64,000 nucleotides of DNA, taken from an uncultured Gammaproteobacteria bacterium (GTDB lineage: Bacteria > Patescibacteriota > Patescibacteriia > Magasanikbacterales > UBA922). The DNA is taken from positions 1,095,829-1,159,828 of the forward strand of contig OZ246405.1 of assembly GCA_965231005.1 (NCBI GenBank). Reading direction: 5' to 3'. Both the position numbers and the translations under genes were made by a program. This document shows, one piece after another, positions 26,166 to 53,477 of the stretch (the stretch's first letter is position 1; every line of letters starts with the position of its first letter). The notes below the pieces were generated by a model. That model was not told where the DNA came from and searched no databases. It worked only from the letters and a program-made list of their open reading frames with translations.

Positions 26166-26190
26166 AGAAGGAACAGATAGAACTCTGAGC

Positions 26191-26215: not shown

Positions 26216-26290
26216 GGTTCCAGCTACACTCTTGCTCCCGGTAACCGCACGTTAGAACTCTGGCAGCCGACACCAGACATGCGATCGCCC

Positions 26291-26320: not shown

Positions 26321-26327
26321 TGCGGGC

Positions 26328-28382: not shown

Positions 28383-28388
28383 GAAACT

Positions 28389-28622
28389 ATGCCACAAATA
28401 AAGAATATTGCCCGTTCAGCGACGATTGACACAGCCAAGCGACAACGGTCGTGCAAGCGGTGTCGGGCAACGAAATCGATTGACGCGGGTTCGGACCACT
28501 TGGTGGTCCACGAAGCCCAGCGCGACTTCTACTACTGTCAGCGACACGCTATCGAGATCCTGGACACGGCAATCATTCATTGCCAGACCCTGAAGAAGCA
28601 GCTGGAGGCGGCTGCGATCTAG
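28389..28622 (+). CDS. small hypothetical protein with CxxC ... CxxH pattern (possible zinc ribbon)
   Basis: 77-aa ORF starting 7 nt after helicase stop; SCKRCRATKS ... YYCQRH; could be non-coding shadow in GC-rich DNA. Confidence 0.3.
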   Translation: MPQIKNIARSATIDTAKRQRSCKRCRATKSIDAGSDHLVVHEAQRDFYYCQRHAIEILDTAIIHCQTLKKQLEAAAI

Positions 28623-28663
28623 CTGGTCTTGCTGTGAATCGGCTCCAACGCGCGAAGAATCTT

Positions 28664-30109: not shown

Positions 30110-30113
30110 GGGC

Positions 30114-31532: not shown

Positions 31533-31631
31533 CATTGTCTGGTTAGATGAGTAACCAGCCATCTTGCCAGAATCGCTGTTTTTGTGTAATATGTATCGTA
31601 TCTGAAAGCTGAGGCTCTGAGAGGTATCACA

Positions 31632-31650
31632 ATGAACACACCGTGTTCAT
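31632..31650. promoter_or_regulatory. perfect palindrome ATGAACAC-acc-GTGTTCAT upstream of recombinase gene (operator-like)
   Basis: 8-bp inverted repeat with 3-bp spacer, about 100 nt upstream of recombinase start on its promoter side. Confidence 0.35.
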
Positions 31651-31854
31651 TTGCATACCCCTTCCTGTGGATCGAGCTGTTTCCAGTTCTCTCCACTCGT
31701 CTCGGCTCAGGCACGTCAGCAAAAGACTACGCTGCAAGCAGCAGCGGGCCGTCGCGAGAGAGAGACTTCCGCGGCAGCGCCGGCAATTGATTACCAGTTG
31801 CTGCGTTCAAGCAGTTCCTCAGGAGGGTTCTAAACTCATGCCTACATGCCTGCG

Positions 31855-31891
31855 AAAAAATGAGTTGAGCTTTTGCTCAGCTCATTTTTTT
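31855..31891. terminator. terminator-like hairpin with flanking A/T runs (bidirectional)
   Basis: aaaaaatgagttgagc-tttt-gctcagctcattttttt; 11-bp stem with one G-U. Confidence 0.4.
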
Positions 31892-31900
31892 GTTGCAAGT

Positions 31901-31914
31901 AAGGGGAATCGAAC
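31901..31914. repeat. inverted partial copy of tRNA-Glu T-loop/acceptor core (gttcgattcccctt on minus strand)
   Basis: Reverse complement of aaggggaatcgaac matches tRNA 26142-26154 (gttcgattcccct) 13/13; not a functional tRNA (no T-stem pairing). Confidence 0.3.
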
Positions 31915-32023
31915 TGGGGATGGTAAGGGGCAGCGCCCCTTACATTTCTGGGGGTGACCGAGCGCAAGCGAGGACAAGAGGGGCGGAAGCCCCTATTGGG
32001 AGCGAGAATACGCGACGTGAGAT

Positions 32024-32039
32024 TTCCCCTACGGGCTGC
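32024..32039. repeat. attR-like 16-bp direct repeat of tRNA-Glu 3' end
   Basis: ttcccctacgggctgc identical to 26148-26163. Confidence 0.6.
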
Positions 32040-32106: not shown

Positions 32107-32124
32107 ATTCCCCTACGGCCTGCC
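32107..32124. repeat. second att-like copy (attcccctacggcctgcc, 1 mismatch to tRNA 3' end)
   Basis: Matches tRNA 26147-26164 with g->c change; 68 bp after first attR copy. Confidence 0.45.
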
Positions 32125-32213: not shown

Positions 32214-32420
32214 ATGCTCATCCTGGAGGACCTCATGACAAAGACCAAGAAAAAAAAGCCGCCCCCCGGCCAAACTTGGGACCCACACGCACTGTTGCGT
32301 GCACGCCCTCCAGTGGATCCGGAACGAGAGGCGCTAAACAAGCGTCTGCGTGAAGCGATCCCTCGTGGGGCTGCCCAACCCGGCGGCATCATCTGCGACG
32401 AGCGCCCTCCTCAGGAGTAG
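32214..32420 (+). CDS. small Pro/Arg-rich hypothetical ORF (doubtful)
   Basis: 68 aa, no recognisable features; possibly a transcribed non-coding leader. Confidence 0.2.
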   Translation: MLILEDLMTKTKKKKPPPGQTWDPHALLRARPPVDPEREALNKRLREAIPRGAAQPGGIICDERPPQE

Positions 32421-32604
32421 GCGCCCGTACCTGCAATACTTTTGCGACGTTGTTCCCGAGCACCGGGAGCACTCATCGCACTCGCGGTGTACGGGAACAA
32501 CAAAAGAACATCTTATCTAAAGATGTTTTTTTGATTTATAACATTGACAAACCAAACAAAACATGAGATAAATACCCTACTTTCTCTCATCAAGAAAGCC
32601 TGTG

Positions 32605-32761
32605 CTGGGATGGCATAGGAACGCTCTTTCCAAAGGTTGGAACTTCTACTGGGATGGTAGTCGAGAGCTGAAACATTTTTCCCCATGATGAGCATACACG
32701 GGATGTGGATGTGGGGACGGGTGGTGGTTCAATCGAATGGATCACAGTATCTCTGGGATGG
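32605..32761. repeat. three copies of CTGGGATGG (32605, 32649, 32753) plus gggatgtggatgtgggg; iteron-like cluster
   Basis: Exact 9-mer three times within 160 bp in an AT-rich stretch upstream of ORF 32795-33676. Confidence 0.3.
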
Positions 32762-32794
32762 AGATAAGCCTGTAGTTTCACCAAAGAGGATGAC

Positions 32795-33676: not shown

Positions 33677-33896
33677 CTCAAAAACTCATCCCCGATACGT
33701 CGGGGGGGCAGGATGAGCCAACAACAGAACTCAAAGGAGATGGACACGACCTGCCCGTGTCCTCCCATACTGTTTCTTTAATAGAGGAAATAGTTAGGAT
33801 AAAAAACTACCACAAGCTGGTGGTTTTTTATTATCAGCAGCTTGCAAAAAAACAGTTTCACCATTATTATAAATCTACCCACACTTAACCAAGGAG

Positions 33897-34574
33897 ATGA
33901 ACGTGAAACATTCAAACGTTCTTTTCATTGCGATGGCTACAGCGTCGGTCATCCTTTTCACATCTTGCACTGGCAAAAAGGAAGCCACCCGGAAAACGGC
34001 AATTGTTGTCGAAACCACCCCAAGACCAAGAAAGCCAAATCCACCTCAACCGCCACCTTCCACTCCAAAATCACCCCAACCTCCACCAATCGACCTCTCG
34101 CAGTACAGGTACATCAAGACCGCCTGCACCACCTGTGGTTGCCCAAGAAGATACCTTGCACGCCAAGGAGATTCAGTGGTGTTGGTGACAGCAGCTGAAC
34201 TCAACAAAAATGCTCTCTGGAAGATCCACACAGGTAGCTTGAGAAGCAGGTCTGGACAATCGATCGCAACAACAGTCTTTGAACACTTTCGAGGCGGCTG
34301 TCTGGATTGGGGCAATGGTGGAACCTTGATCATCAACAGAGGAGGCTGCTTCAGAGCTTCAGGCACTCATTGGTCCCGAAGGACAAGACTCCCCAACCGT
34401 GCTCGAATCGGAGTTCAGGGGGCTGTTGGCTATCGAAGCTTTGGCAGCGGAAGATACGACAAGCACTACCTGGACTTTCAAGGACGTGGAAACTGTCACC
34501 CTTCTTTAATTCACGAAGATCGAGTGAATCGGAATACAGTCGGAGTATTTTGGCTGGTCCGAAAAGAACCATAA
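33897..34574 (+). CDS. lipoprotein with Pro-rich linker (hypothetical)
   Basis: Signal peptide with lipobox-like ILFTSC, then TPRPRKPNPPQPPPSTPKSPQPPP linker; AAGGAG RBS. Confidence 0.45.
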   Translation: MNVKHSNVLFIAMATASVILFTSCTGKKEATRKTAIVVETTPRPRKPNPPQPPPSTPKSPQPPPIDLSQYRYIKTACTTCGCPRRYLARQGDSVVLVTAAELNKNALWKIHTGSLRSRSGQSIATTVFEHFRGGCLDWGNGGTLIINRGGCFRASGTHWSRRTRLPNRARIGVQGAVGYRSFGSGRYDKHYLDFQGRGNCHPSLIHEDRVNRNTVGVFWLVRKEP

Positions 34575-34705: not shown

Positions 34706-36958
34706 CTATTTTGCACTCAGGCGGACCCTGCACCTCATTGACCAGATTTCTGCTCCAAAGACACTTCTATCCCTTATCGAAGGTTTTTTTCTTGCACCTA
34801 CGATATGCAGATTCAAAATATTTCCTTGTAGTTTTACATGCCCTCTCGGCGAACGAACTATGCCGAGTCCTTCAATCCAATCAGCCTGTGGAAGTCGTAC
34901 ATGGTCAACAATGCGTATCTTCTTTCCTGGCCTGAAACGGTAAAAACGAAGACTGCCAGCAAGCAGTTCAACAATCAAACGACGGTCAGGAATATATGCA
35001 ATATCCACATTTGCAAGTTCTGCTATAGACCGTGCATCCTTGCTCAACATATATGGAAATCCTAACGACTTCCTCAATGGAACAAAGCGGCCATTTTGAT
35101 ATTCTTGTGCGCCTACTCTAAAACCCCAGTCTTTCGATCGGACAACGTAGTATCCTGATCCTGTACTCCGGCTTGACGCTGGGCCAGTTGTGTCAGTGAA
35201 GAACATGTAGTACCACCTACCAATGTGCACAAGCGATGGCTGGCCTGCGCCATATGGATGGACAAGTGTGTTTCCCTGTTGTCTTTTTTGCCATGCATGT
35301 TGCAATCCCCTTTTTGGTGTGTCGTCAACACTAAAGACTTCGAGAACATTGCTCTTGTTCTTTACGACACCAAAGCCATGAGGATGACGCCCTGCCAGTT
35401 CTTCCCACTTCCCTCCTCTCCAAAGATTCTGTTCTATTGCCTTTACAGCACAGTCAGACCAGTGTTTGTTGCATCCTCGTGGAAATTGATACGTGTTGAA
35501 CAAGTGAACGCCATAACCTTGGAATGTCGCACGTACAAATAATTCAATACGTCCTTCTCCGCCTTTTGCCAAAGCAAGTGGTGGATGGAAACTGCGCACA
35601 GAGCCAGGATGATTTGCCACAGATGTATCAACGATCTTTGACCAGTGTTTGTTTTCAAAACGTTGATTCTTGCTTTGTCTGACTGTCCAAATAGTCCCTG
35701 TTCTGGTCAGTGCGAAGAGATGGGCATATCCTTTCTTACCCTGGATAGCCTGCACGTCGGTAGGTTTGTTTGGTACTTTGATTCTCTGCCAAGGTCTACT
35801 CCACTGCCTAGCCCAGCGACTGCCCGCAGGCCGGTTTCGGACTTTGTAATAGATGTGCCCATTTGTTCCTGTAAGTCCAAACAGAACAATACTATTACTA
35901 TTTCCAGGAGCATCTGGAACAATGCCAGAACAAACACGTGGTGAATGAAAGAAAAGAGCTTTCTGCTTAGGAACTGGGAGCAATCCCTGCCGTAGCATAC
36001 TCTCTTCCCTACCAAAAATCTGACCTGACCAAGTGCCGAACACATACACCTTTCCGTGCGCGTCGCTGTGAGCAACAACATCATGAATCGGAGAACCAAC
36101 AACATTCCAAGCGTCCTTGAACTGAAGCTTCCTTGCATGTCCAGGACTGTATGGATTTTGCCAGTTTGTGTACAGCGTGTTTGTACCCTTCTTGACTGCA
36201 TAGGCTTGGATACGACCATGCGAATGCTGTTTGTCTTGCCATGTTGCGAGTGCAAAATCACTTGCAAAAAAATTCTTTCGGATGTCACCAACATAGTGTG
36301 GACGTCTCTCCCACTTGCCAGATTCATCTCGTTGAAAGTAATGCAAGCGACTGTCTGCACTCAAACTGAATACAGCAACATCTTGCCAGACACGATCGCG
36401 CTGCGGATTGTAATGCTTCATCAGAGTTGCGACAAGTGGTGCATGATGCGTACCACCCAATCCAGCATGCCATGATGTCCACCCACCGTGCCCTTCAATC
36501 GTAGGTTGGTGACCTCGATTGAGAACTCGCTTGAAATGAAGGCTATTCGTTCTTCTTGCAATCCCGATCTTTGTTCCAGGGCCAAAGTTGTATCCACCAT
36601 ATGCCATGATGTATCCGGTCTTGCTAGTCGCAATTACACTCGGGTCACATGTGTGCATCCCGTCAAAGTGGCTCTTACTCGTTCTTTTTGTTGATCCAAA
36701 AACACGAACAGGGTTTGTCCACTTTTGTCCAGCATTCTTCTTGCTAAAACAGATCGCATCACCACTGTTTTCGCAGCACCACCACATTTTCAAGACGTTT
36801 CCGTCCCTCATGATAGTTGGTGCATACTGATATGCGGAAAACGACTTGTGAACTAGGACTGGTTTGTCACAGCCGAGAAGCTGGAAAATAGTCTCAGATT
36901 CCTGTGTCCACCCAAGCTGAGTGCTAAAGAGTATGAACAAAAAAAGTACTCGGTTCAT
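34706..36958 (-). CDS. large secreted hypothetical protein (possible beta-propeller)
   Basis: 749-756 aa; signal peptide MNRVLFLFILFSTQLGW; Trp/Gly-rich repeats; start preceded by AAGGGGGA SD shared with other GC-rich genes. Confidence 0.4.
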   Translation of the reverse strand: MNRVLFLFILFSTQLGWTQESETIFQLLGCDKPVLVHKSFSAYQYAPTIMRDGNVLKMWWCCENSGDAICFSKKNAGQKWTNPVRVFGSTKRTSKSHFDGMHTCDPSVIATSKTGYIMAYGGYNFGPGTKIGIARRTNSLHFKRVLNRGHQPTIEGHGGWTSWHAGLGGTHHAPLVATLMKHYNPQRDRVWQDVAVFSLSADSRLHYFQRDESGKWERRPHYVGDIRKNFFASDFALATWQDKQHSHGRIQAYAVKKGTNTLYTNWQNPYSPGHARKLQFKDAWNVVGSPIHDVVAHSDAHGKVYVFGTWSGQIFGREESMLRQGLLPVPKQKALFFHSPRVCSGIVPDAPGNSNSIVLFGLTGTNGHIYYKVRNRPAGSRWARQWSRPWQRIKVPNKPTDVQAIQGKKGYAHLFALTRTGTIWTVRQSKNQRFENKHWSKIVDTSVANHPGSVRSFHPPLALAKGGEGRIELFVRATFQGYGVHLFNTYQFPRGCNKHWSDCAVKAIEQNLWRGGKWEELAGRHPHGFGVVKNKSNVLEVFSVDDTPKRGLQHAWQKRQQGNTLVHPYGAGQPSLVHIGRWYYMFFTDTTGPASSRSTGSGYYVVRSKDWGFRVGAQEYQNGRFVPLRKSLGFPYMLSKDARSIAELANVDIAYIPDRRLIVELLAGSLRFYRFRPGKKIRIVDHVRLPQADWIEGLGIVRSPRGHVKLQGNILNLHIVGARKKPSIRDRSVFGAEIWSMRCRVRLSAK

Positions 36959-37134
36959 CATGTCCCCCTTTTTCATGAATGACCTTTACACCTTAGCAGA
37001 ACAGAAAGAGAAAATCCAATCTGAAAACTTTATAAAAAATTCATACTTTATTTGTAACAATTTCAATAGATATTCTTCCTTTTTAAAAGAATATCACCCA
37101 ACCAACCGCTCATTCACAATACAAGGGGGAAACC

Positions 37135-40100
37135 ATGAAAACCAGACTGTTCATTGCAGCATGTATTGCGCTGCATATCTGGGGCTGTTCAAACGGCGAA
37201 CACGAAAACGAAGCAGATGCAAAGGCTGACTTTGTCATTGGCGAAACAGCAAAAGGTGCCTGTGACGACAAAGAGCTGCCGAACAATACCAGAACCATCT
37301 TGAGCAAGTACTGCGCGGACTGTCATGGTCCGAACAGCGGGAAGCTCGGTGGATTTGGTACAGTGCTCGATGCAAAGGCAATGACGATTGGCGACAACGC
37401 GCTGGTAAAAGCTGGCAAGGTTGCTGAATCACGTCTGTTTACGAAGCTGAAAGCTGCTGGCGGGAACATGCCACTAAGTGCAGATGATCTGAGCAAGGAC
37501 GAAGTCGACACGCTGCGCGACTGGATTAACTGCGGCGCAGAGAGCTGGGACGAAGAATGCACAAGGAAATTTATTTCCAATGAAGAAATGCACAAGATAA
37601 TGGCAGATGACCTTAGCAGCCTTGCTGCTGAAGAACGGAAGAACATCCGCTATATCACACTCACGCACCTGTACAACGCATGTGTCAACCGAGACCAGCT
37701 GGATATCTATCGAACTGGCATTAGCAAACTCGTAAACAGCCTGAGCTGGACAAAGGGCATTTTCAAACCAGTTCCAGTAGGTAAATTCGGAACGATCTAC
37801 CGAATCAACCTGAGTCTGTATGGTTGGCTTCCAGGACAAACAAGCGAAAAAGGCATGTGGGAGCTCATTGAAAAGGCATATCCATACGGCTTTAAGGTTG
37901 AAAAAGGCATTGACAACGATTTTTCAGAGGTTGTAAGTCAGACCAAAACGAATACACCATACGTGCACGCTGATTGGTTTGCAAACCGTGCTGGAAAACC
38001 TCCACTCTATCACGCCCTGCTGAATCTTCCATTGACTGACACTGAGCTTGAAAAGGACTTCTTGAGTGTCGATGTTTTGTCGAATATCAAAAAGACAGAG
38101 CAAGGCAACAAAAACGCTTCTACGCGAGTAATCCGTGCTGCTGTACAAGATTCTGGTGTTTCAAACCACAACCGCATGATCGAACGTCATAAGTCAAAAT
38201 ATGGCTGGTACTGGAAAAGTTATGACTTTGCTGGCAGTGTTGGCAAGCAAGACCTTGAGCAAAATCCGCTCGGTCCAAACGAGACACCAGTAACTTTCGA
38301 ACATGATGGCGGTGAGATGATTTTCACGCTCCCAAATGGCCTTGATGGCTACTTGGTGACGAATGCTGCAAGTTGCAGGATCGACGTGGCACCAACTGCC
38401 ATTGTTTCTGATCCAAAAAGCCAGGACAAGGCTGTGCGTCCAGGAAGTTCTTGCATGGGCTGCCACTACAAGGGCAAAATTCCAGCTGCGGACTTTGTGC
38501 GTGATTCAATTACGAGCAAGAAGCAACAGTTTATCACCGAACATGGCCAGAAAGCATTTCAGGCGGTTTTGAACCTCTATCCGCCGAAAAAGGAGTTTTC
38601 TGCAGCGATCAATCAAGAGCAACAGGATTTCCTGAAACAGTTGGCGCTTGCTGGCGTTGATCCATCAAAGGATGAACCAGTCTCTGCACTGGCAAATTCG
38701 TTTGAAGATCAACTCGACAAGGTAAAGATCGCAGCAACGCTTGGAATTGATCCCAAGGAAATTGAAAACTTCCTCAAGTTCGACGCTGTAGCAAGTAGCC
38801 TGATCGGCTCAGTGCGTAAAGATGGTGAGACCATCCCACGAGACAAGTTCTGCACATACTTCTCTGCGATTCTGAACCAGAAGAATGGCACGTTCGCTGG
38901 CTACACACCACTGGCAGATGTAAAAGTTTGCCAGCCACCAAAAGACGTTGCTGGCTGTCTCCAAAACGAGTGCCTGAAAGATGCTGACTGCAATAGCAAA
39001 GACGAATGCACTGTTGGGAGCTGCAACATACAAAAAGGATGCGTGTTTACGCCTATTGCGAAGATATGCGATGATGGAAATCAGTGCACCACAGACAAAT
39101 GCATAACTGGAACTCCAAAAAAATGCACACATACACCTACTCCGAATGCAAGCTGCAATGCAGACAACAACGTTTGCACCAAGTTTGACTCGTGTTCGGA
39201 CAGCGGAGTTTGCAAAGCAGGAGAGCAAAAAGTCTGCCCAAAGCCAGTGAATCCATGTGAAAAACAAAAATGCGATTCGAAAATCGGCTGTGCAGTTGAC
39301 ATCTTGCCAAATGGGACAAGCTGCCCAGGTGGTCTTTGCCACTCTGGAAAGTGCGTACTAGCTGCAAAGCAAATAAGTGCAGGAGACCTTTTCACATGTG
39401 CAGTAACACTGAACGACACTGTTGTCTGCTGGGGTCTAAACAAATTTGGTCAGCTGGGAAATGGTTCAAAAGTGCTAAACACCTCAGTACCTGTTCATGT
39501 GAAGGGACTCACCAACGTAGAAAGCGTATCTGCTGGTGTATCACATGCTTGTGCTATTAAAAAGGACAAGACCCTGTGGTGCTGGGGTTTTAACAACTAT
39601 GGTCAACTCTCAGTGGGAAGCAACAAGGGCAGTCCAATACCAGTGAATATTCCATCTATGAAGGTAAATCAAGTTGGGATTGGAAATTCTCATACCTGCG
39701 CGCTAAACACCACCGGCTCTGTATACTGCTGGGGTGACAATTCCTACGGACAACTTGGCACAGATACGAAGGTGCTCAAAAACTCCCATAAGCCTGTCCT
39801 TGCGAGCAGTGGAATCGAACAAATAGCACTTGGTCCTCAACATTCTTGTGCCATTCAGTCTAGTAATGGCGTCTCCTGCTGGGGACGTAATCAATACGGA
39901 CAACTCGGCAATGGAAGTAAGGATGATACTCACATCACCTACAAGTGGAAAAATCTCGCTCTTCCTACATTTATTGATGCTGGATACCTAAATACCTGCG
40001 CAATAAAAAGTAATTCGTCGCTTTACTGTTGGGGAAGCAACATCCATGGAAAACTTGGTGTAGGGAGTACCAAGGCTGGCGAGGTGCTTACTCACGTCCT

Positions 40101-40428
40101 TGCAACCGCAGTTCCTACTGATGTGACAGACGTAAGTATTGGCCGACATCATGTGTGCGTGAAGACCAAAAAGAACAAATTCCATTGCTGGGGAAGCAAC
40201 AAAGATGGACAAGTAGGTTTCAATCCTCAATTCATTCACAAAAAGGAATTCCTCTTCCCACTGGCCATGGGATCTGGTAAACAGATATCGACTCGAAATT
40301 CACATACGTGTGCAATCATGGATGATAAGACGGTAAAGTGCTGGGGATTCAACTCTCTTGGACAAATAGGACACGGGAAAACAGGGGGAAGTGTTATAGG
40401 GCCGGTCCACGTATTGCCTCCGAAGTGA
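37135..40428 (+). CDS. giant lipoprotein: N-terminal CxxCH motif region, Myxococcus-type cysteine-rich repeats, seven C-terminal RCC1 repeats
   Basis: Lipobox IWGCS; YCADCHGP (heme-binding-like CxxCH); CxDGNxCTxDKC-type repeats (CDDGNQCTTDKC etc.); RCC1 blades (…CWGxNxxGQLGxG… seven times). Confidence 0.6.
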   Translation: MKTRLFIAACIALHIWGCSNGEHENEADAKADFVIGETAKGACDDKELPNNTRTILSKYCADCHGPNSGKLGGFGTVLDAKAMTIGDNALVKAGKVAESRLFTKLKAAGGNMPLSADDLSKDEVDTLRDWINCGAESWDEECTRKFISNEEMHKIMADDLSSLAAEERKNIRYITLTHLYNACVNRDQLDIYRTGISKLVNSLSWTKGIFKPVPVGKFGTIYRINLSLYGWLPGQTSEKGMWELIEKAYPYGFKVEKGIDNDFSEVVSQTKTNTPYVHADWFANRAGKPPLYHALLNLPLTDTELEKDFLSVDVLSNIKKTEQGNKNASTRVIRAAVQDSGVSNHNRMIERHKSKYGWYWKSYDFAGSVGKQDLEQNPLGPNETPVTFEHDGGEMIFTLPNGLDGYLVTNAASCRIDVAPTAIVSDPKSQDKAVRPGSSCMGCHYKGKIPAADFVRDSITSKKQQFITEHGQKAFQAVLNLYPPKKEFSAAINQEQQDFLKQLALAGVDPSKDEPVSALANSFEDQLDKVKIAATLGIDPKEIENFLKFDAVASSLIGSVRKDGETIPRDKFCTYFSAILNQKNGTFAGYTPLADVKVCQPPKDVAGCLQNECLKDADCNSKDECTVGSCNIQKGCVFTPIAKICDDGNQCTTDKCITGTPKKCTHTPTPNASCNADNNVCTKFDSCSDSGVCKAGEQKVCPKPVNPCEKQKCDSKIGCAVDILPNGTSCPGGLCHSGKCVLAAKQISAGDLFTCAVTLNDTVVCWGLNKFGQLGNGSKVLNTSVPVHVKGLTNVESVSAGVSHACAIKKDKTLWCWGFNNYGQLSVGSNKGSPIPVNIPSMKVNQVGIGNSHTCALNTTGSVYCWGDNSYGQLGTDTKVLKNSHKPVLASSGIEQIALGPQHSCAIQSSNGVSCWGRNQYGQLGNGSKDDTHITYKWKNLALPTFIDAGYLNTCAIKSNSSLYCWGSNIHGKLGVGSTKAGEVLTHVLATAVPTDVTDVSIGRHHVCVKTKKNKFHCWGSNKDGQVGFNPQFIHKKEFLFPLAMGSGKQISTRNSHTCAIMDDKTVKCWGFNSLGQIGHGKTGGSVIGPVHVLPPK

Positions 40429-40612
40429 AGATCAAGTAGCACACCACGCTCACGCGTTGTGCGCTCAACCAAACGAACGTGGACGACTGTTGCTTTTCGA
40501 AGCGACGGTCGTCCACTTTTTAATTTGATAAAAACTTTATATTCCATAATTGACAAAAATGGAAAAAAGCACTTATAGTTAAACTACAGAACTCAAACCA
40601 AGGGGGAAACCA

Positions 40613-42223
40613 ATGAAGAACGCTGTTCTTTTTACAATCTGCTGCCTACTTTTGACGCTCGGACCGAGCTGCAGCTCAAATAATCCAGTTTGCGACTTGG
40701 GTGATGTTGAGTGCAGAAGCGGTGGAAGGATGTTTTTTTGTAGAGTCTCGACAACTTCCAATGGAAACTTTTGGAAGTTTTCCCACACCTGTTCATCCAA
40801 GAAGTGCAAAAGTGCAACAACGTGCGCACCGAAGTCAACCAAAAAAGACGCAGGATCAACCCAAAAGCAGGACGGAAAAAGCACTGCAAAATACTGCGGT
40901 GACAGCATCTGTGAAACAAACGAAAGCTGCGAAACTTGCCCAAAGGACTGTGGAAAGTGTAAACCAAAATGCGGCGACGGAACATGCAACGGTCAAACAG
41001 AAAATTGCGCTGTCTGCCCACAAGACTGCAAGTGCAAGTCAGGAACCAAATGCAACAAAGCAAAAGGCATTCAAGCCTGCGTCTACGATCCAAAGTGCGG
41101 CAATGGGAAATGCGACGGTCAAACAGAAAACTGTTTCAACTGTTCCAAGGACTGCAAGTGTTCTAGTGGACAAATCTGCAGTCCGAAAAAACAAAGCTGC
41201 GTCAAACCATATTGTGGAGATGGTCTTTGCCGATCTTCTGATGGTGAACGGTGCTACAACTGCGAAGTAGATTGCAAATGCAGCTCGAGCTTGGTCTGCA
41301 GTAAGTCAAAGGGTGGATGCTGCAAACAAAAGACCTGTTCAAGCTATCCCAAAGGAATATGTGGAATCCAGTCAGATGGCTGTGACAGTACCATTTCCTG
41401 TGGATGCCCAAAGAACTATGTCTGTGGTCATAACAAGTGCAAGCTAAACTGTTCAGCACTCTGCAAAAACAAATGCGGTAAGCTGAGCAATGGCTGTAAC
41501 TGCGGCTCTTGTGGATACAACTCACTTTGCATCGGGAATGTTTGTAAATCATGCAAACCACTGTGCACTGGAAAATGCGGGAACTTTCTCGGCTGCAATT
41601 GTAGTATCTACAAAAAGTGTTCAAAGTGGTACCTCTGTGTACAAAACCAGTGCGTCAACTGCCAAGAGCTTTGCCTATTCAAAAACAAGTGGTGTGGTAA
41701 CTTCAGTGCTTGCGGCACCAACAAAAACTGCGTAAACAGCAAGTGCTCAAGTGGATACGTCTGCAAGTCAAACAAATGCACCAAAAAACCACCAGAGTGT
41801 TCGGGCGGTGCAGGCTGTGCCCCAGAAAAACTCTGCTGTGGCGGCAAGTGTAAACTTGCAAAGTTGCAGGACGACTACGGAAAGAACTGGATGTCCGCAA
41901 AGAGTGCATACTACAAGCAGACCATTTCAGGACAACTTTACCCATCCTCTGATGTTGACCTTTTTCAGGTAAAAGCGACTCTCTCTGCAAATGGAAAGAG
42001 CGTAATTCCAATTAAGTTAAAGTTCAACGGACCAGGACTGAACTGCACATTGAAGCGCAAGAAATATGGACCGAATAGTCCAGTAACGTACGCATCGTGC
42101 AACTACGCAAAGGCCTTTACTCCTCAGTGGGGATCAGGAAATGGCTACTACTACTATGTGGAGATTAGGAGCCAAAGCTCTTCTAAAAAAGGCTGCTGGA
42201 CACTGCAGGTCGTGAAAGGATAG
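40613..42223 (+). CDS. secreted cysteine-rich repeat protein with PPC-like C-terminal domain
   Basis: Signal peptide; three tandem about 42-aa repeats CGDGTCNGQTENCAVCPQDCKC / CGNGKCDGQTENCFNCSKDCKC / CGDGLCRSSDGERCYNCEVDCKC; many further CxxC units; C-term …SSDVDLFQVKA… beta-sandwich-like. Confidence 0.55.
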   Translation: MKNAVLFTICCLLLTLGPSCSSNNPVCDLGDVECRSGGRMFFCRVSTTSNGNFWKFSHTCSSKKCKSATTCAPKSTKKDAGSTQKQDGKSTAKYCGDSICETNESCETCPKDCGKCKPKCGDGTCNGQTENCAVCPQDCKCKSGTKCNKAKGIQACVYDPKCGNGKCDGQTENCFNCSKDCKCSSGQICSPKKQSCVKPYCGDGLCRSSDGERCYNCEVDCKCSSSLVCSKSKGGCCKQKTCSSYPKGICGIQSDGCDSTISCGCPKNYVCGHNKCKLNCSALCKNKCGKLSNGCNCGSCGYNSLCIGNVCKSCKPLCTGKCGNFLGCNCSIYKKCSKWYLCVQNQCVNCQELCLFKNKWCGNFSACGTNKNCVNSKCSSGYVCKSNKCTKKPPECSGGAGCAPEKLCCGGKCKLAKLQDDYGKNWMSAKSAYYKQTISGQLYPSSDVDLFQVKATLSANGKSVIPIKLKFNGPGLNCTLKRKKYGPNSPVTYASCNYAKAFTPQWGSGNGYYYYVEIRSQSSSKKGCWTLQVVKG

Positions 42224-42354
42224 ATCGCCCAAAAAATCAAACAAGGAGAAGAAAACACCAACGGTTCTGTCTTGGCAGAGCCAATGGTGTTTTTTCTTGT
42301 CAAAATATAAAAATCAAGGCATACTTGAGTAAGTTATTTTAGTAATTCCAACAT

Positions 42355-42825
42355 ATGGCAATAACAGCAAAGAAAAAAAGACAAGCTGCTGCCCAACGTG
42401 CAGCTCAGCCGAAAAAAATTTCAGAAAAAACAAAAAAATTTAACAAAGATAGTGCAGAAGAATTTTTACAAGCTGCAAGAGATGGACAGCCTTGGAAGCT
42501 CTCTTCAATTTGGCGGGTACGAAACTATTTAAAAAATGGAGGCCTTAACACAAAAGATATTGGAACAACAGAAGATGAACTCAAAGCCTTAAAAGAAAAA
42601 CTCATTAAAGAAGGAACAAAAAAAATGGAACAAGTCAGGCAGAACAAAGACGCAAGCCTTCTGGCAATTCTATCTGTCGATTTAAAAGAAGCAGGATATG
42701 ATCCTGAACTCATAGGGTCAACTGCCGCTGAGATGGATGAACTTAAAAGGGAATTTATTGAGAAAGAAGACAGAGAAAGAGAACAAAGGGAAAAAACAAG
42801 AGAAGGAGGAAGTGCTCGAAGATAA
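42355..42825 (+). CDS. hypothetical charged coiled-coil protein (host-like low GC)
   Basis: 156 aa, Lys/Glu-rich; low-GC codon usage unlike neighbours. Confidence 0.4.
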   Translation: MAITAKKKRQAAAQRAAQPKKISEKTKKFNKDSAEEFLQAARDGQPWKLSSIWRVRNYLKNGGLNTKDIGTTEDELKALKEKLIKEGTKKMEQVRQNKDASLLAILSVDLKEAGYDPELIGSTAAEMDELKREFIEKEDREREQREKTREGGSARR

Positions 42826-42849
42826 TAGAAAAAATACAGTATTGTAATG

Positions 42850-42880
42850 AAAAATCCCTTATTTATAGGGATTTTTTTCT
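42850..42880. terminator. rho-independent terminator
   Basis: aaatccct-tatttat-agggattt followed by ttttt. Confidence 0.5.
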
Positions 42881-42978
42881 TAAAAAGGAAGAAAGACGTT
42901 ATTGACCTTGACAAATCATTCAATTATGCTATAGTTAGCAGTCCACTTTTTGCTCAAAAAAAACCTGAGTTAACAGTA

Positions 42979-42997
42979 TTTTTGGAGTCTCCAAAAA
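42979..42997. promoter_or_regulatory. 19-bp palindrome tttttggag-t-ctccaaaaa (operator-like) upstream of 43138 gene
   Basis: Perfect 9-bp inverted repeat with 1-nt centre, flanked by gttaac on both sides. Confidence 0.3.
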
Positions 42998-43137
42998 CGT
43001 TGTTAACTCATGTTGCCGCTCGGCGATATGGGTCGCTTGCACAGGTTCACTGTGTAGGCATTTGAACACTACAACATAGGATCAGCTACTCCAGTCCTGT
43101 CCGGACTTGGAAAAGCACAGCTTCAAAGGGGGACCTC

Positions 43138-44463
43138 ATGAAGACAATCACCTTGATCGCAGCACTGACCTGCGCAATGATCATGGGCTGTACAGACAGC
43201 AGCAGTGTGGATGGCGACAGCTCGTCGAGTGCGAAGATCGACGGAGGATCAAGCGACGGTCACGTTTTCAACCCAGAAGACAGTGGCACCATCGACCAGA
43301 ACGATGCCGGCGAAAAGCAACCTGACCCGGGCGAATTCAAGTGGCCGTGCAAGGATCATGGCGACTGCGACAGCGGCCTTTGCGTTGACACACGGGGCGG
43401 TATGAAGTGCACCAAGACCTGCGTCAATGAATGTCCTGTTGGCTACGCTTGCAAGATAATCCAAGCGCCGGGTGGTGACAATGTGAATGCCTGTATCGAC
43501 GCGTTTCTGAACCTGTGCAAGCCGTGCACCAAGCACACCGAATGTGGTAAGAACAACAAATGCGTATCATGGGGCAAGGATGGCAGTTTCTGCGGACACT
43601 TGTGCTCGCTGGACAGCCACTGCCTCGCAGGCTACTCATGCCAAGACGCAGTGGACAAGGACGGCAAGGCCCTTGGCAAGCAGTGCAAACCCAAAAACGG
43701 CCAGTGCAAGTGCAGTCAGTTCGCGATCAACAACGAAGCCGAGACCGAGTGCTCGGACAAGGAAAAGTTCGCAAGCTGCAATGGTACGCGCAAGTGCACC
43801 ACTGGCGGTTTGACCGCATGCGACTTCGACAAGAAGGCAGAGCTTTGCAACAACCTTGACGACGATTGCGACGGCCAGACCGACGAAGAGCTGTGCGACG
43901 ACGGCAAGGAGTGCACGGTCGACAAATGCAAAGGCGGCACCTGCAGCAACGCACCCAAGACCGGCGGCTGCCAGTTCTCGAGCAAGTGCTTTACAGGCTA
44001 CTGCTCTGCAGGCGAATGCCTCAAGGGCAAGCTGGTGAAGTGCGACGACGGCAACCCCTGCACAAAGGACTACTGCGACAACAGCACAGGCTGTGAGAAC
44101 AAGCCAGACTCAGGCCAGAAGTGCGACGAAGACGGCAACCAGTGCACCACAGACGTTTGCAAGGACGGCAAGTGCAAGCACATCGGACACAGCAAGAAGT
44201 GCGACGATGACAACAAGTGCACCTTGGACGAAAAGTGCGAGCCGACCAAAGCAACATGCTCGGTGGTCACCAAGTTCAAGAACTGCCAAGACGGCAACGT
44301 CTGCACCGATGACCTGTGCAATCCCAAGACCGGCTGCTACACAACCCCTGCAAAGGATCCGGACGCGGCCAACGGCTGTCCCATCAACTTGCAGAAATGC
44401 CAGAAGAAGGTCTGCGCAGGTGGTGGTATCTGCAGCTCGGCTCCCATTCCTGGCTGCAAGTAG
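43138..44463 (+). CDS. cysteine-rich repeat lipoprotein (Myxococcus-type CxDGNxCTxDxC repeats)
   Basis: Lipobox IMGCT; repeats CDDGKECTVDKC, CDDGNPCTKDYC, CDEDGNQCTTDVC, CDDDNKCTLDEKC, CQDGNVCTDDLC; strongly GC-rich; AAGGGGGA SD. Confidence 0.55.
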   Translation: MKTITLIAALTCAMIMGCTDSSSVDGDSSSSAKIDGGSSDGHVFNPEDSGTIDQNDAGEKQPDPGEFKWPCKDHGDCDSGLCVDTRGGMKCTKTCVNECPVGYACKIIQAPGGDNVNACIDAFLNLCKPCTKHTECGKNNKCVSWGKDGSFCGHLCSLDSHCLAGYSCQDAVDKDGKALGKQCKPKNGQCKCSQFAINNEAETECSDKEKFASCNGTRKCTTGGLTACDFDKKAELCNNLDDDCDGQTDEELCDDGKECTVDKCKGGTCSNAPKTGGCQFSSKCFTGYCSAGECLKGKLVKCDDGNPCTKDYCDNSTGCENKPDSGQKCDEDGNQCTTDVCKDGKCKHIGHSKKCDDDNKCTLDEKCEPTKATCSVVTKFKNCQDGNVCTDDLCNPKTGCYTTPAKDPDAANGCPINLQKCQKKVCAGGGICSSAPIPGCK

Positions 44464-44574
44464 CTTCCCCAAACGATCCTATGTGTAGTGAACCCCACTT
44501 CGACCTGCTGGTCGGGGTGGGGTTCTATCTTTCTTACTCATTTTTTGCTATGATTAGTCAGAAATATAGAAACT

Positions 44575-45585
44575 ATGAATATTCTTGCAATTGAATCATC
44601 TTGCGATGATACATCCGTAGCATTAGTAAACTGTTCTGAAAAAGGAACAGTTATTCTTGCTGAAAAAACTGCAAGCCAAATTGATATTCACAAAAAGTAT
44701 GGTGGTGTTATTCCGGAAATCGCTGGCAGAAAACATGCTGAAGCAATCTTTCCTGTTATTGAAGAAGTAATGAACAATCAAAAAAAGCCAGATGCTATTG
44801 CTGTAACGTCTGGACCAGGTCTTATGACAGGACTTCTTATTGGCGTAGAAGCAGCAAAAATACTTTCCTATCTCTGGAATATTCCACTTATTTCAATAAA
44901 TCATATTGAAGGACATATTTATTCAACACTTCTTGGTGAAGAAAACAAAAAAATAGTATTTCCAGCAATGTGTCTTATTGTAAGTGGTGGACATACAGAG
45001 CTGATCTTAATGAAAGATCATGGTGACTATGAATTAATTGGAAAAACAAGAGATGATGCTGCAGGAGAAGCATTTGATAAAGTTGCAAAACTTCTTGGTA
45101 TGGATTATCCTGGCGGTCCACAAATTTCTAAAAACGCAGAAAAAGGAAATCCAACAGCAATCAACTTCCCTCGCCCAATGATTGATAGTGATGATTTTGA
45201 TTTTAGTTTTGCAGGATTAAAAACAGCAGTTCTCTATCACATGAAAGATAATCCAGATGCCAATGTTGCAGATGTATGTGCAAGTTTTGAACAAGCTGCT
45301 GTTGATGTACTTGTTTCCAAAACTGAAAAGGCAGTAAAAAAGTATAATGCAAAAACACTCATCCTTGGTGGTGGTGTTAGTGCAAACACAAAACTCAAAG
45401 AGTCTTTGCAAACAATAGTTGATGATTCCCAAATTTCTAATTTCCAATTTCCAATTTCTAAGTATGCTATGGACAACGCAGCAATGATTGGTGCTGCAGC
45501 ATATGAACATGCAAAAAAGAAAAATTTTACTCCTTGGAAAGATATTACTGCTGACTCAAACTGGAAAATCTATGAAAAAAATTAA
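44575..45585 (+). CDS. tsaD: tRNA N6-adenosine threonylcarbamoyltransferase
   Basis: MNILAIESSCDDTSVALV... Kae1/TsaD family; 336 aa. Confidence 0.85.
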   Translation: MNILAIESSCDDTSVALVNCSEKGTVILAEKTASQIDIHKKYGGVIPEIAGRKHAEAIFPVIEEVMNNQKKPDAIAVTSGPGLMTGLLIGVEAAKILSYLWNIPLISINHIEGHIYSTLLGEENKKIVFPAMCLIVSGGHTELILMKDHGDYELIGKTRDDAAGEAFDKVAKLLGMDYPGGPQISKNAEKGNPTAINFPRPMIDSDDFDFSFAGLKTAVLYHMKDNPDANVADVCASFEQAAVDVLVSKTEKAVKKYNAKTLILGGGVSANTKLKESLQTIVDDSQISNFQFPISKYAMDNAAMIGAAAYEHAKKKNFTPWKDITADSNWKIYEKN

Positions 45586-45718
45586 CAACTAGCAATTAAC
45601 AATTAACAAACTATGTGGGTACGGTTCCTGTCCAAAATATTTTTAAAAATTTATATAACAAATTCTAGTATAAAGAACCAACAAAAGTTGTTAATTGCTA
45701 ATTGTTTATTGTTAATTG
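45584..45718. repeat. inverted-repeat pair of the TTGTTAATTGCTAATTGTT family flanking about 85-bp AT-rich spacer
   Basis: Left aacaactagcaattaacaa (45584-45602) is reverse complement of right ttgttaattgctaattgtt (45688-45706) with 1 mismatch; right arm near-identical to 4338-4357. Confidence 0.5.
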
Positions 45719-46924
45719 TCATATATGACCAACCACATAGATAAAAGAATTTACCGCCTACTTATTTCACATGGTTTTTATGGTTGCACGAGAATTTTAA
45801 ACAATGTTTTTTTAAGTTTATACATTTGGAACCTCTCAAGTGGATTTCAGCCACTTGCAATTTATTTTTCCTCTTATTTATTTTTTCATAGTCTCTTTTT
45901 TCATCTTTGGGGATATGTTGTAAAACATGGACATACACATATTGTAAGATTAGTAGGACTTGTTGGAATGCTTGGCTTTTATGGATTTTTATTGTTTGTA
46001 AGACAAGATGCAATAAATCATCTTGTACTTCTTGGTCTTCTCCACGGAATCTTTGGATCAATGTACTGGCTTACCTACCACGTGCTTGTTTTTGATAGCA
46101 CTCATACAAAAAATAGAGCAAACTATTTGGGGATGGAAAATGCCATGTCAATCATTGTGAACGTGGCCACTCCGCTGATTGGAGGTTTTCTTGTCACACT
46201 AAATTTATTTGGTCTAGGATATGAAACCGTCTTTGCATTGTCAGGATTAAGTGTTCTTGCTGCAATTATTATTGGATATGTTACTCCACCAAAAACATAT
46301 TGTGGGCACCTTCATATGCGAGAAACATGGAACTTGGTACGAAAAGAAAAAGACCTTTTAAAAGTTTTTGCTGCACAATTTTTTAGTAATGTTGGATACC
46401 GAGGATCTCTTGATAAAATCCTCCTCTTTTTATTGTTCGATGTTTTACAAAAAGAATTTACCCTTGGTGGATGGCTTGCTGTATTTTCTGCAGTCGCAGT
46501 ATTTTCATCTTGGTACATTGGAAAACATTTGTCACCAGACAAATACAGAACTGCAATTATTTACTCAGGAATTCTTATGTTTGCATCGTTCTTTGCTCTC
46601 ATCGGAATACCACATATTGTAACGTATATTACATTTAGTATTGTAAAAGAAGTGCTTACACCATTTATTCGAATTCCACGACAAGTATATGGAAGAAATT
46701 TGATTCACATTTTAAACAATCACAACAAACATCGTATTGAATTCTTTATTATTCGTGAGTGGTTTGGTATTGGATTTGGAAGAATGTTTAGCTACCTCCT
46801 TCTTTTACCCATCGCTACGCTTGATGGACCAAATTTAAAAATTGTTCTTATTTTTATGGCACTCTCTATGGTTGTGGCACCATATATTCTCTCTAGAATA
46901 AAAACTGATTTAAAAACTGTATAA
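45716..46924 (+). CDS. major-facilitator-like polytopic membrane transporter
   Basis: 402 aa, about 12 predicted hydrophobic helices. Confidence 0.4.
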   Translation: MSYMTNHIDKRIYRLLISHGFYGCTRILNNVFLSLYIWNLSSGFQPLAIYFSSYLFFHSLFFHLWGYVVKHGHTHIVRLVGLVGMLGFYGFLLFVRQDAINHLVLLGLLHGIFGSMYWLTYHVLVFDSTHTKNRANYLGMENAMSIIVNVATPLIGGFLVTLNLFGLGYETVFALSGLSVLAAIIIGYVTPPKTYCGHLHMRETWNLVRKEKDLLKVFAAQFFSNVGYRGSLDKILLFLLFDVLQKEFTLGGWLAVFSAVAVFSSWYIGKHLSPDKYRTAIIYSGILMFASFFALIGIPHIVTYITFSIVKEVLTPFIRIPRQVYGRNLIHILNNHNKHRIEFFIIREWFGIGFGRMFSYLLLLPIATLDGPNLKIVLIFMALSMVVAPYILSRIKTDLKTV

Positions 46925-46930
46925 CTTTAC

Positions 46931-46959
46931 TTGACAATACAAAAGCTGCGCGCTAGTAT
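46931..46959 (+). promoter_or_regulatory. sigma70-like promoter TTGACA-17-TAGTAT upstream of prs
   Basis: ttgaca 46931-46936, tagtat 46954-46959; followed by AAGGGGGA SD before ATG 47030. Confidence 0.35.
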
Positions 46960-47029
46960 AGCGATAGTGAACCTTTTCAACCAAGCGGCCTGATTTTGCA
47001 GGCTGCTTTTCATTCCAAGGGGGAAATCC

Positions 47030-48019
47030 ATGAACGGTCTCAAAGTCTTCGGTGGACGAAGCCATCCTGAACTCACTGCGGAAATCGCTGGAATTCTCGA
47101 TGTCCCGGTCGGACGGAGTCGACTGGTTGTATTCAAGAATACGAACCTGCTGTTCCAATCTGAAGAGAATGTCCGCGAGTGCGACGTCTTCTACGTCCAG
47201 TCCTCATGCGAAGGTGTGGACGAAAACGGACACCCCTTCGAGAGCAACATCCTGGCCATGGAGACGCTCATCGCAGTTGATGCACTCAAGAGTGCATCGG
47301 CAGCACGCGTCACAGTCGTCCTTCCCTACTACCCGTACTCACGATCTGATAAGAAGGACAAGCCGCGAATCAGCATCACGGGCCGCCTCTTCGCTGACCT
47401 GCTCCAGACTGCTGGCGCGGACCGTGTCCTGACCATGGATCTACACTCCCCGCAAATCCAAGGATTCTTCCGGATCCCGGTCGATCAACTCATCGCAGCA
47501 CCGATTCTGTGTGATCATCTGAGGACCTGGAACCTCGACAACACCGTACTGGTCGCTGGTGATGCTGGCGAGGCAAAAGAGCTCGGTCGGTTCGCAAACC
47601 GTCTGCACCTCCCCATGGCCGTCGTGGACAAGCGCCGGTTTGGCGATGACGATACTGCGGTCGCCACGAACCTCATCGGAGATGTCAACGGCATGCGAGC
47701 CATCATCGTCGACGATGAAATCGCCACTGGTGGAACCATTGTCGAGGCTGCGCGTTTCCTGATCGACGAAGGAGCAATCGAGGTTGCTGTTGCATCCACG
47801 CACGCAGTCCTTGCGGGCCCTGCCATGAGTCGAATCAACGACAAGGACTCGCCGTTCAGCCGCATGGTGCTGACCAACACCATCCCGATGGGAGACAAGA
47901 GCTCGGACATCATCACGGTCCTGAGTGTTGCGCCCATGTTCGCAGAAGCGATCCGACGAATCCACGATGGCGACTCAGTCAGTGAGCTGCACGACAGCAC
48001 CAACGAACCCAAGGCCTGA
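47030..48019 (+). CDS. prs: ribose-phosphate pyrophosphokinase (GC-rich xenolog)
   Basis: VVFKNTNLLFQSEENVRE..., DLHSPQIQGFF, IIVDDEIATGGTI PRPP-binding motif; GC content visibly far above neighbours. Confidence 0.8.
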   Translation: MNGLKVFGGRSHPELTAEIAGILDVPVGRSRLVVFKNTNLLFQSEENVRECDVFYVQSSCEGVDENGHPFESNILAMETLIAVDALKSASAARVTVVLPYYPYSRSDKKDKPRISITGRLFADLLQTAGADRVLTMDLHSPQIQGFFRIPVDQLIAAPILCDHLRTWNLDNTVLVAGDAGEAKELGRFANRLHLPMAVVDKRRFGDDDTAVATNLIGDVNGMRAIIVDDEIATGGTIVEAARFLIDEGAIEVAVASTHAVLAGPAMSRINDKDSPFSRMVLTNTIPMGDKSSDIITVLSVAPMFAEAIRRIHDGDSVSELHDSTNEPKA

Positions 48020-48101
48020 ACTTCAAGGAACACAAAACCCGCCAGGTTTGCATGTCATTCGACGTGCGAGCCTGGCGGGTCTGCTTTTTTATATAAGAAA
48101 A

Positions 48102-52940: not shown

Positions 52941-53059
52941 GGTCTCTACTGTCCCACTCTACAGAGAGAAAAAGTAGTGAATGTGGTCCCCCGCGCTGCT
53001 GCGACAGGGAACCAATGGCCCAAGCCAAGAAAAGGAAAGTACGTGTTATTTCACCGACG

Positions 53060-53345
53060 TCTGGTGTATCGATCGTTGCCGGGTAATGACTATTTGAGTG
53101 CGCTACTCCTACCTACTGATGCCGTTTATTAGAACAGGTTGCGGCCAAACAATCCTCAGAGCAAAGGTCTGGCGACCTCCCCTTCCGGACTTGACAAGCT
53201 ACCCATCCCTTACACAGCCCAGGGCTGCGCATCACGTACTGACTCCATCCCCTCCGTAACGGGGCATTCACTGTCGACCAACACCAGTGGCCAACTCTTT
53301 GCCCCAGCTTCGAGCAAAGATACGGTGTTCAAAAAGAATATTTCT
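53060..53345 (-). ncRNA. ffs: candidate SRP RNA (ffs), boundaries approximate
   Basis: Minus strand reads GTCAAGTCCGGAAGG (complement of 53182-53196), 14/15 identical to domain IV consensus GUCAGGUCCGGAAGG with GGAA tetraloop; embedded in a 440-bp GC-rich hairpin-dense intergenic block in an AT-rich genome. Confidence 0.4.
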
Positions 53346-53477
53346 TCCTGTACATCGTATCTCTGCACTACTAGAAATGGAGTATACTTTTCCTAACTAG
53401 ACAAGGCAGTATAACACAAAAAAGCAGTCTTGTCAAGATCTGTACATGAATAATGATAAAATTTAGCTTATGTAAGC

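Follow-up and report, generated by a model that had tools for sequence, protein, structure and literature searches.

Canonical Shine–Dalgarno (SD) sequences (AAGGAGG) are purine-rich and pair with CCUCCUU in the 3′ tail of 16S rRNA. Whole lineages, such as the Bacteroidota, initiate translation independently of SD sequences, and the few SD-bearing genes found there are special cases. Here we describe six GC-rich genes, each preceded by the same purine-rich motif, AAGGGGGA, in a 64,000-nucleotide (nt) stretch of DNA from an uncultured bacterium (contig OZ246405.1, positions 1,095,829 to 1,159,828; hereafter the window). The genome is Patescibacteria-like, 1.23 Mb in size and about 35% GC, and our analysis covered approximately 84 kb of it. 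Like canonical SD sequences, the motif lies 4 to 6 nt before an ATG codon, can form 7 bp with the 16S tail, and is accompanied by an A-rich spacer and an AAN second codon. It differs from them in the G–U pair at its center in all six copies, in its non-pairing CC, AAA, and TCWTTC flanks, and in being found only on foreign genes within a genome and lineage that otherwise lack SD sequences. As in Bacteroidota-type initiation, the native genes carry no SD even though a relative retains the anti-SD sequence, but the SD-bearing minority here comprises foreign genes rather than an autoregulated native gene. We favor, with a probability of roughly 0.55, the reading that the motif is a strong SD-type initiation region on six horizontally acquired genes in an SD-less lineage.

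The genomic setting also invites comparison with described systems. As at tRNA-gene genomic islands, there are about 18 kb of extra GC-rich DNA with a serine-recombinase element and repeats of a tRNA 3′ end. However, the motif genes lie outside these repeats, and two of them, prs (ribose-phosphate diphosphokinase) and g61793, occur at other loci, each inserted as a single gene that has a promoter and a terminator of its own. The prs gene further resembles xenologous displacement in situ, a concept that reportedly goes back to Omelchenko et al. in 2003, in that a foreign prs occupies the slot of the native prs of relatives, but here neither flanking homology nor a native-gene remnant is visible, and there is no argG remnant 5′ of the gene. 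Integron gene cassettes are likewise single-gene units of foreign composition, several of them clustered. We rejected this comparison because attC-like repeats and an IntI integrase are lacking (the only recombinase being of the serine type), and because the units lie dispersed and each brings its own promoter and terminator.

The core sequence AAGGGGGA occurs seven times on the two strands of the window, compared with 1.3 copies expected. The longer pattern AAGGGGGA-N3-6-ATGAA occurs six times compared with 0.01 expected, and six copies were reached in none of 100 shuffles. All six sites lie directly 5′ of the start of a GC-rich open reading frame (ORF), with 4 to 6 nt between the G-run and the ATG. 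The consensus for the entire initiation region is TCWTTC-(0 or 6 nt)-CAAGGGGGAAAYC-ATGAA, with the extended form TCWTTC...CCAAGGGGGAAAYC. The individual sites, including a variant seventh, are as follows.

36954–36982, minus strand: initiation region of g36958, TCATTC-atgaaa-AAGGGGGA-catg-ATGAA
37110–37139, plus strand: initiation region of g37135, TCATTC-acaata-CAAGGGGGAAACC-ATGAA
40593–40617, plus strand: initiation region of g40613, TCAAAC-CAAGGGGGAAACCA-ATGAA
43121–43142, plus strand: initiation region of g43138, CTTCA-AAGGGGGA-cctc-ATGAA
47010–47034, plus strand: initiation region of prs, TCATTC-CAAGGGGGAAATCC-ATGAA
61789–61811, minus strand: initiation region of g61793 (sixth site), TCTTTC-CAAGGGGGAATC-ATGAA
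33889–33905 (region 33884–33907), plus strand: variant site before the lipoprotein gene g33897 (start at 33897/33903), CCAAGGAG-atgaac-GTGAA

An initial annotation of this DNA had reported the motif before five gene starts, all of which we confirmed, and had missed the sixth copy (ccaagggggaatcATGAA, 61789–61804, minus strand). Its statement that the spacing is the same at the five starts is not exact, since the distance varies from 4 to 6 nt and is therefore similar rather than identical, and its sequences were given in an order that differs from that of its coordinates. The start positions of five motif genes coincide with the gene calls of the European Nucleotide Archive (ENA). For g36958 there are three in-frame ATG codons (36976, 36961, and 36958, minus strand); the motif is at SD distance from 36958 only, and the public ENA contig call for this gene (750 amino acids, aa) likewise starts there. 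Upstream of the motif, at a distance of 0 or 6 nt, stands TCATTC, TCAAAC, or TCTTTC, with TCATTC itself (background frequency 3.3e-4 per nt) present at three of the six sites. In addition, CC precedes AAGG at four of the seven sites. The shared block corresponds to the region that contacts the ribosome, and it ends at codon 2.

The sequence AAGGGGG is predicted to form 7 bp, with a central G–U pair, with the CCUCCUU of the 16S rRNA tail, which was taken from the relative L209. With the canonical tail, the computed duplex energy is −9.8 kcal/mol for AAGGGGGAA and −14.0 kcal/mol for AAGGAGGUG. Both the complementarity to the 16S tail and the spacing of 4 to 6 nt are those of an SD sequence. The start regions of the motif genes also fold more stably than those of host genes (−8.8 versus −5.4 kcal/mol).

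Such signals are foreign to the low-GC host genes of the window, which has about 35% GC overall. Its housekeeping genes comprise frr, mreB, ribD/ribBA, those for L10 (preceded by an L10 leader) and L7/L12, dnaE, and tsaD, and it also encodes DUF4012, DUF5671, and LemA proteins. The initial annotation had described the ribosome-binding sites of these genes as short and A-rich or weak, a statement that holds even more strongly than was claimed: 32 of the 35 low-GC genes in the window have no SD core of at least 4 nt within 22 nt of the start, and the upstream sequences of these 35 genes include no copy of the motif. The L10 and L7/L12 starts also lack an SD, including that of the leadered L10 mRNA. 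The three low-GC genes with an SD core are listed below, and a properly placed SD-like sequence is thus present on one low-GC gene at most.

7588, minus strand: low-GC gene with AGGA, 3 nt from ATG
57814, minus strand: low-GC gene with GTGA, 1 nt from ATG
58956, minus strand: low-GC gene with AAGGAGGT, 13 nt from ATG and thus too distant

Relatives of the host were found through TsaD (46–65% identity; loci L133 to L209), and in 13 of their loci with about 170 ORFs, SD cores occur 13 times upstream of starts compared with 20 times in a within-ORF control. The 16S rRNA of L209, a distant relative (TsaD 47% identical), ends in GGATCACCTCCTTTCT, which is the canonical tail. Because neither the host genes nor the loci of relatives are enriched in SD sequences, the host lineage initiates translation without them, with the anti-SD sequence probably retained, and the motif signal is therefore not native. 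A non-canonical anti-SD (CCCCC) was considered and is not supported, given the canonical tail of L209. The positions of −10-like hexamers before host genes show no sharp peak of the kind expected for leaderless transcription, and a literature search yielded no reports about PRJEB17505 or about how Patescibacteria use SD sequences.

All six motif genes are compositionally foreign, and the confinement of the motif to such genes, as proposed earlier, holds within the window. The genes and their products are listed below, where GC3 denotes GC content at third codon positions.

34706–36958, minus strand: g36958, 750-aa secreted protein with a signal peptide, an orphan; GC 0.46, GC3 0.41, class B
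37135–40428, plus strand: g37135, 1097-aa lipoprotein; GC3 0.47, class B
40613–42223, plus strand: g40613, 536-aa Cys-rich lipoprotein; GC3 0.50, class B
43138–44463, plus strand: g43138, 441-aa lipoprotein with Cys-rich repeats of the Dicty_CTDC type; GC3 0.75, class A
47030–48019, plus strand: prs; GC 0.57, GC3 0.67, class A
61467–61793, minus strand: g61793, 108-aa membrane protein; GC by codon position 0.59/0.45/0.78, class A

With the exception of Prs, the products (five of six) are secreted, lipoprotein, or membrane proteins. In g37135, a cytochrome-c/PSCyt1-like N-terminal half (35–40% identity to Planctomycetota PSCyt1 proteins) is accompanied by Cys-rich repeats and RCC1 repeats. The g37135 and g43138 proteins have in common Cys-rich CxDDGNxCTxDxC repeats and similar lipoprotein signal peptides. 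The latter belongs to a large family, yet its best matches among 1.84 billion representatives are only 41–47% identical. We found no match for g40613 in Pfam or NCBIfam and no homologue of g36958. The prs product is a class I Prs with three Pfam domains, including Pribosyltran_N and Pribosyl_synth, and scores 320.5 for NF002320 (cut-off 297) and 314.6 for TIGR01251 (cut-off 113). At the g61793 locus the public ENA call is a plus-strand ORF of 168 aa (61365–61871), which is probably wrong; the minus-strand ORF is favored because of its codon-position GC and its promoter and terminator.

A comparison of codon usage, suggested in the initial annotation, divides the motif genes into two classes rather than a uniform set. 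Class B (g36958, g37135, and g40613) has GC3 values of 0.41–0.50, and class A (g43138, prs, and g61793) has values of 0.67–0.78. Correlations of relative synonymous codon usage between the two classes range from −0.26 to 0.28. Codon usage in class A correlates with that of the genes of a tRNA-Glu-associated element described below (r 0.32–0.73); for class B, a partial correlation with the host is seen.

Each motif gene is an independent transcription unit. A sigma-70 consensus promoter in AT-rich DNA is followed by a leader of about 25 to 200 nt that ends in the SD, then by the GC-rich ORF and its intrinsic terminator. The following features of these units were mapped.

40479–40516, plus strand: intrinsic terminator of g37135
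40550–40579, plus strand: promoter of g40613, TTGACA-18-TATAGT, 11/12 matches, in AT-rich DNA
42908–42935, plus strand: promoter of g43138, TTGACA-16-TATAGT, 11/12 matches
44490–44525, plus strand: intrinsic terminator of g43138
46931–46959, plus strand: promoter of prs, TTGACA-17-TAGTAT
48037–48080, plus strand: intrinsic terminator of prs with a 20-bp stem
61930–61902, minus strand: promoter of g61793, TTGACA

From promoter to motif, the leaders vary among the genes in both length and sequence. That of g43138 is about 200 nt long and has a near-perfect 26-bp hairpin (42962–43014, 85% complementary) at its 5′ end, and that of prs contains a hairpin at approximately 46984–47012. None of the leaders matches an Rfam family, even at E values up to 1, and the six initiation regions have no common fold. 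In class A units the GC content exceeds the host level from about 80–150 nt upstream of the ATG, which places the SD inside the foreign segment; at prs, GC rises from the host level across the promoter (~46920–46960).

The motif genes are found at three places, namely in an insertion hot spot that lies between tRNA-Glu and tsaD, in the slot of the ancestral prs, and in a 0.5-kb mini-island. In relatives the ancestral order is L10-tRNA-tsaD-(MFS)-(prs)-dnaE(−), with the tRNA adjoining tsaD, where MFS denotes a major facilitator superfamily transporter. By comparison with these relatives, the window has the approximately 18 kb of extra DNA between tRNA-Glu (26091–26165) and tsaD. The genes that separate this DNA from prs had been taken for host genes, and they are indeed native and stand with dnaE in ancestral synteny.

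44575–45585, plus strand: native tsaD; GC3 0.18–0.24 (range for both genes), no SD
45725–46924, plus strand: native MFS transporter gene; no SD

The first 5.9 kb of the extra DNA (26166–32039) is a tRNA-associated integrative genomic island of 58–61% GC whose genes have no SD. Besides a MerR-type helix-turn-helix/ResIII helicase and a large serine recombinase (30114–31562, minus strand), it encodes an unknown protein of 481 aa. The tRNA 3′ end, TTCCCCTACGGGCTGC, is repeated at 32024–32039 (16 nt) and, with one mismatch, at 32107–32124. The motif-bearing cluster is located beyond these tRNA-derived repeats and thus outside the element. A degraded tRNA fragment is also present at 26030–26088, upstream of tRNA-Glu. 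In one relative (L164; TsaD 62% identical, 32% GC), a GC-rich ORF of 400 aa (8040–9420) lies beside the tRNA, next to tsaD, and has a TTGACT/TATAAT promoter, a C- and A-rich leader of about 100 nt, and a GAGGA SD. With this second insertion, the tRNA-tsaD junction appears as a recurrent insertion site in the lineage.

The sequence comparisons identify prs as a probable case of xenologous displacement in situ, in the slot between tsaD/MFS and dnaE, because its product is closer to proteins encoded on high-GC contigs than to the Prs proteins of relatives in the same slot. The Prs protein of the window is 71–75% identical to proteins from contigs of 61–69% GC with argG-prs synteny, and the named matches are from Myxococcales/Myxococcota. 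In contrast, it is only 44–45% identical to the Prs of relatives L146 and L183, which is of native composition, whereas tsaD and dnaE have 58–69% identity to the same two loci. The gene order there is tsaD-prs-dnaE(−), compared with tsaD-MFS-prs-dnaE(−) in the window, and the GC3 value is 0.67 compared with 0.2 for the host. The earlier designation of prs as a xenolog is borne out by these values, with up to 75% identity to the high-GC-contig proteins.

Searches for a donor gave no clear lineage. When 185,579 species genomes were scanned for the motif, more than 119 single matches were listed over many phyla; no lineage is enriched among the matches listed, and the genome of the window itself is not one of them. 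A scan of IMG/VR viral contigs returned 11 single matches with no enriched lineage. Among the matches listed in these scans there is one site per locus, compared with three within 10 kb in the window. In approximately 1 Mb of relatives' loci there are no more than about 10 loose matches, and none lies within a GC island. Neither prs nor its neighbors are preceded by the motif on the five contig sets with the nearest relatives of the window prs (L006, L009, L227, L229, and L231). The contig whose prs ranks second among these relatives (74% identity) encodes a Dicty_CTDC protein beside that gene.

Other GC-rich genes in the same genome use other SD sequences. The acetyl-CoA synthetase gene acs, another xenolog (~57% GC; L222 17700–19900, about 7–9 kb left of the window start) forms a unit with a TTGACA...TATACA promoter, a short leader, a terminator, and the SD AGAGAGGT-atacc-ATG, which is unlike the motif. 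The SD of the GC-rich g32795, AAAGAGGA, is also unlike it. The leader of this gene (about 215 nt, 32544–32794) follows a TTGACA...TAAATA promoter and contains three copies of CTGGGATGG; it has no Rfam family match. Between the tRNA-derived repeats and the secreted-protein cluster lies g32235 (32235–32420, plus strand), a GC-rich gene for a lysine- and proline-rich protein of 61 aa, with a TTGACT promoter, GGAGGA-cctc-ATG, and a terminator. Because acs, g32795, and g32235 use other SDs, the motif is not a universal adaptor for foreign genes here; nor is it a demonstrable signature of one donor. The claim of the initial annotation is thus partly supported: the foreign translation signals and the prs xenolog stand, and the motif clearly marks imported genes, but derivation from a single donor lineage is not proven, with two codon classes, differing homology, and the absence of the motif from prs relatives arguing against it.

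According to the reading that we favor, the SD-bearing leaders would have arrived as part of foreign DNA that stemmed from SD-using bacteria, since a recipient lineage without SD usage offers nothing from which such leaders could evolve or be copied. Given the two composition classes, there would have been two or more episodes of arrival, or two or more sources. In the recipient, the motif may bring ribosomes to leadered mRNAs with more structure than the native ones have. Most economically, it would be an ordinary strong SD-led initiation region that entered along with the genes and was retained because such leadered, GC-rich mRNAs require it. Since the similarity among the initiation regions exceeds what pairing with 16S rRNA explains, these regions probably share an origin, with one donor lineage or one vector being a possible source.

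Several observations weigh against this reading. No donor with the motif was found among the genomes and contigs sampled, and the nearest prs relatives (the five contig sets) have other upstream sequences. The promoters and many of the intergenic stretches are AT-rich and host-like, which implies that at least part of each unit was assembled or remodelled in the recipient. In class B, moreover, the leaders are short and rich in A and T, and composition therefore gives no ground for assigning their SDs to foreign DNA. The pairing was computed with the 16S tail of a relative rather than that of the host itself. Finally, simple SD function does not explain the exact sequence, because the central position is G and not A at all six sites and a canonical tail leaves the CC and AAA flanks unpaired. 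The central G, these flanks, and TCWTTC point either to common descent of the initiation regions, whether by way of a donor, a vector, or reuse inside the genome, or to some further factor.

In its strict form, the single-donor proposal of the initial annotation would derive all motif genes from one lineage with CCAAGGGGGAA as its typical ribosome-binding site, with joint or repeated arrival of genes that host genes now separate. The identity extends beyond the SD core, the recipient lineage is SD-less, g37135 and g43138 have related Cys-rich repeats and signal peptides, and a Dicty_CTDC protein stands beside prs in a 74%-identical relative, all of which would fit such a donor. We nevertheless consider this explanation possible rather than likely. 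The genes fall into two codon classes, class A resembling the tRNA-Glu element in its codon usage and class B to some extent the host, and their best-match affinities differ: prs is Myxococcota-like, g37135 is Planctomycetota-like, and g36958 has none. Moreover, the motif is missing from all five sampled contig sets of prs relatives, no lineage is enriched among the more than 119 genome matches listed or the 11 viral matches, and acs, g32795, and g32235 use other SDs while the genes of the tRNA-Glu element use none. The occurrence of the motif in two composition classes would be accommodated if an initiation module of about 25 nt, together with a promoter in some cases, had been reused in the recipient genome or on a vector, with unrelated ORFs of any donor being fused to it or converted to resemble it. 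Host-type, AT-rich promoters, the block TTGACAA-N7-TTTTTGTGTTATA common to the promoters of two GC-rich units, and CC and AAA flanks that rRNA pairing does not explain are consistent with such reuse. However, the module is not bordered by repeat boundaries, a transposase, or recombination sites, the leaders differ in length and sequence, only about 14–25 nt are held in common, which is short for recombination, and the recipient lineage offers no SD-bearing template, so we regard this explanation as doubtful.

Convergent selection in the recipient for a strong SD, an A-rich spacer, and an AAN second codon on structured, GC-rich foreign mRNAs, whose translation would be poor otherwise, would agree with the more stable folding of the motif gene start regions (−8.8 versus −5.4 kcal/mol) and with a shared block that coincides with the ribosome-contact region and ends at codon 2. 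It is nonetheless unlikely, because GGAGG would bind better than GGGGG and yet the central G is present at six of six sites, because selection for an SD would not yield the CC prefix and TCATTC, and because other foreign genes have different SDs or none. That conservation exceeds the rRNA-pairing part, and that five of six products are secreted, lipoprotein, or membrane proteins, could also reflect a site that is bound by a protein or small RNA acting in trans as a regulator, with a translational regulon of acquired envelope proteins and prs. With no candidate regulator identified, no common fold, no Rfam match, and prs outside the functional theme, such a regulon is most improbable. An assembly chimera or contamination, in which GC-rich reads were joined to a low-GC genome, would produce abrupt GC switches at gene boundaries like those seen here. 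It is scarcely credible, since the identical mosaic was assembled independently in ERZ930061 and ERZ930065, the window proteins map to a 1,232,850-bp NCBI contig, the boundaries fall between promoters and terminators and leave the units intact, and tRNA-derived direct repeats bound the neighboring element.

The preferred reading, an SD-type initiation region that came with acquired genes, makes this locus a new example of known phenomena rather than a new kind of system. Its translation signals, beyond base composition, separate acquired from native genes in a clean natural case, and the motif offers a practical marker for xenologs in SD-less Patescibacteria. The locus further documents the replacement of prs, an essential gene of nucleotide metabolism, by a foreign copy in its original slot, and it raises the question of how an SD-independent apparatus handles SD-led foreign mRNAs. 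A more far-reaching possibility, which we consider very unlikely, is that TCWTTC...CCAAGGGGGAAAYC defines a separate translational channel or regulon for the acquired envelope proteins and prs. In this case the genes might be translated only when a free anti-SD is available, or translation might be gated by a factor that recognizes the non-pairing flanks. If true, the element would be a functional cis-code for the expression of foreign genes and not a leftover from a donor.

Several additional features were observed in the window. The block TTGACAA-N7-TTTTTGTGTTATA is found in the promoters of two unrelated GC-rich units (53436–53408 and 61930–61902, both minus strand), which suggests promoter reuse. 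The first of these promoters and a bidirectional terminator enclose a GC-rich stretch of about 457 nt (52942–53398, minus strand; GC 0.5–0.6) that has no convincing ORF and folds far better than its shuffles (z = −5.0). No Rfam match and no homolog in the loci of relatives were found for this stretch, which may represent either an RNA with a defined structure or the decayed remains of a foreign gene. The 0.5-kb GC-rich mini-island of g61793 has an inverted repeat at 61347–61378 and 61846–61873 (TACTAGACAAAAAGGT and ACCTTTTTGTCTAATA; 16 nt, 94%) that extends into GAGCGAACG when two indels are allowed. A third similar copy (61916–61931) overlaps the g61793 promoter, and the other motif units have no such flanking inverted repeats.

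At 60518–60978, a small AT-rich gene pair adjoins an ArsC-family gene; its second gene encodes a HigB/YafQ-like toxin, and the pair is probably a mobile toxin–antitoxin module. The toxin-like gene at 60718 carries AAGGAGG merely 1 nt before its ATG. An M23 peptidase gene (20918–22255, minus strand) is of intermediate composition (GC 0.42, GC3 0.39), has the SD-like sequence GCAAGGAGAGGTC before its ATG, and may be an older acquisition.

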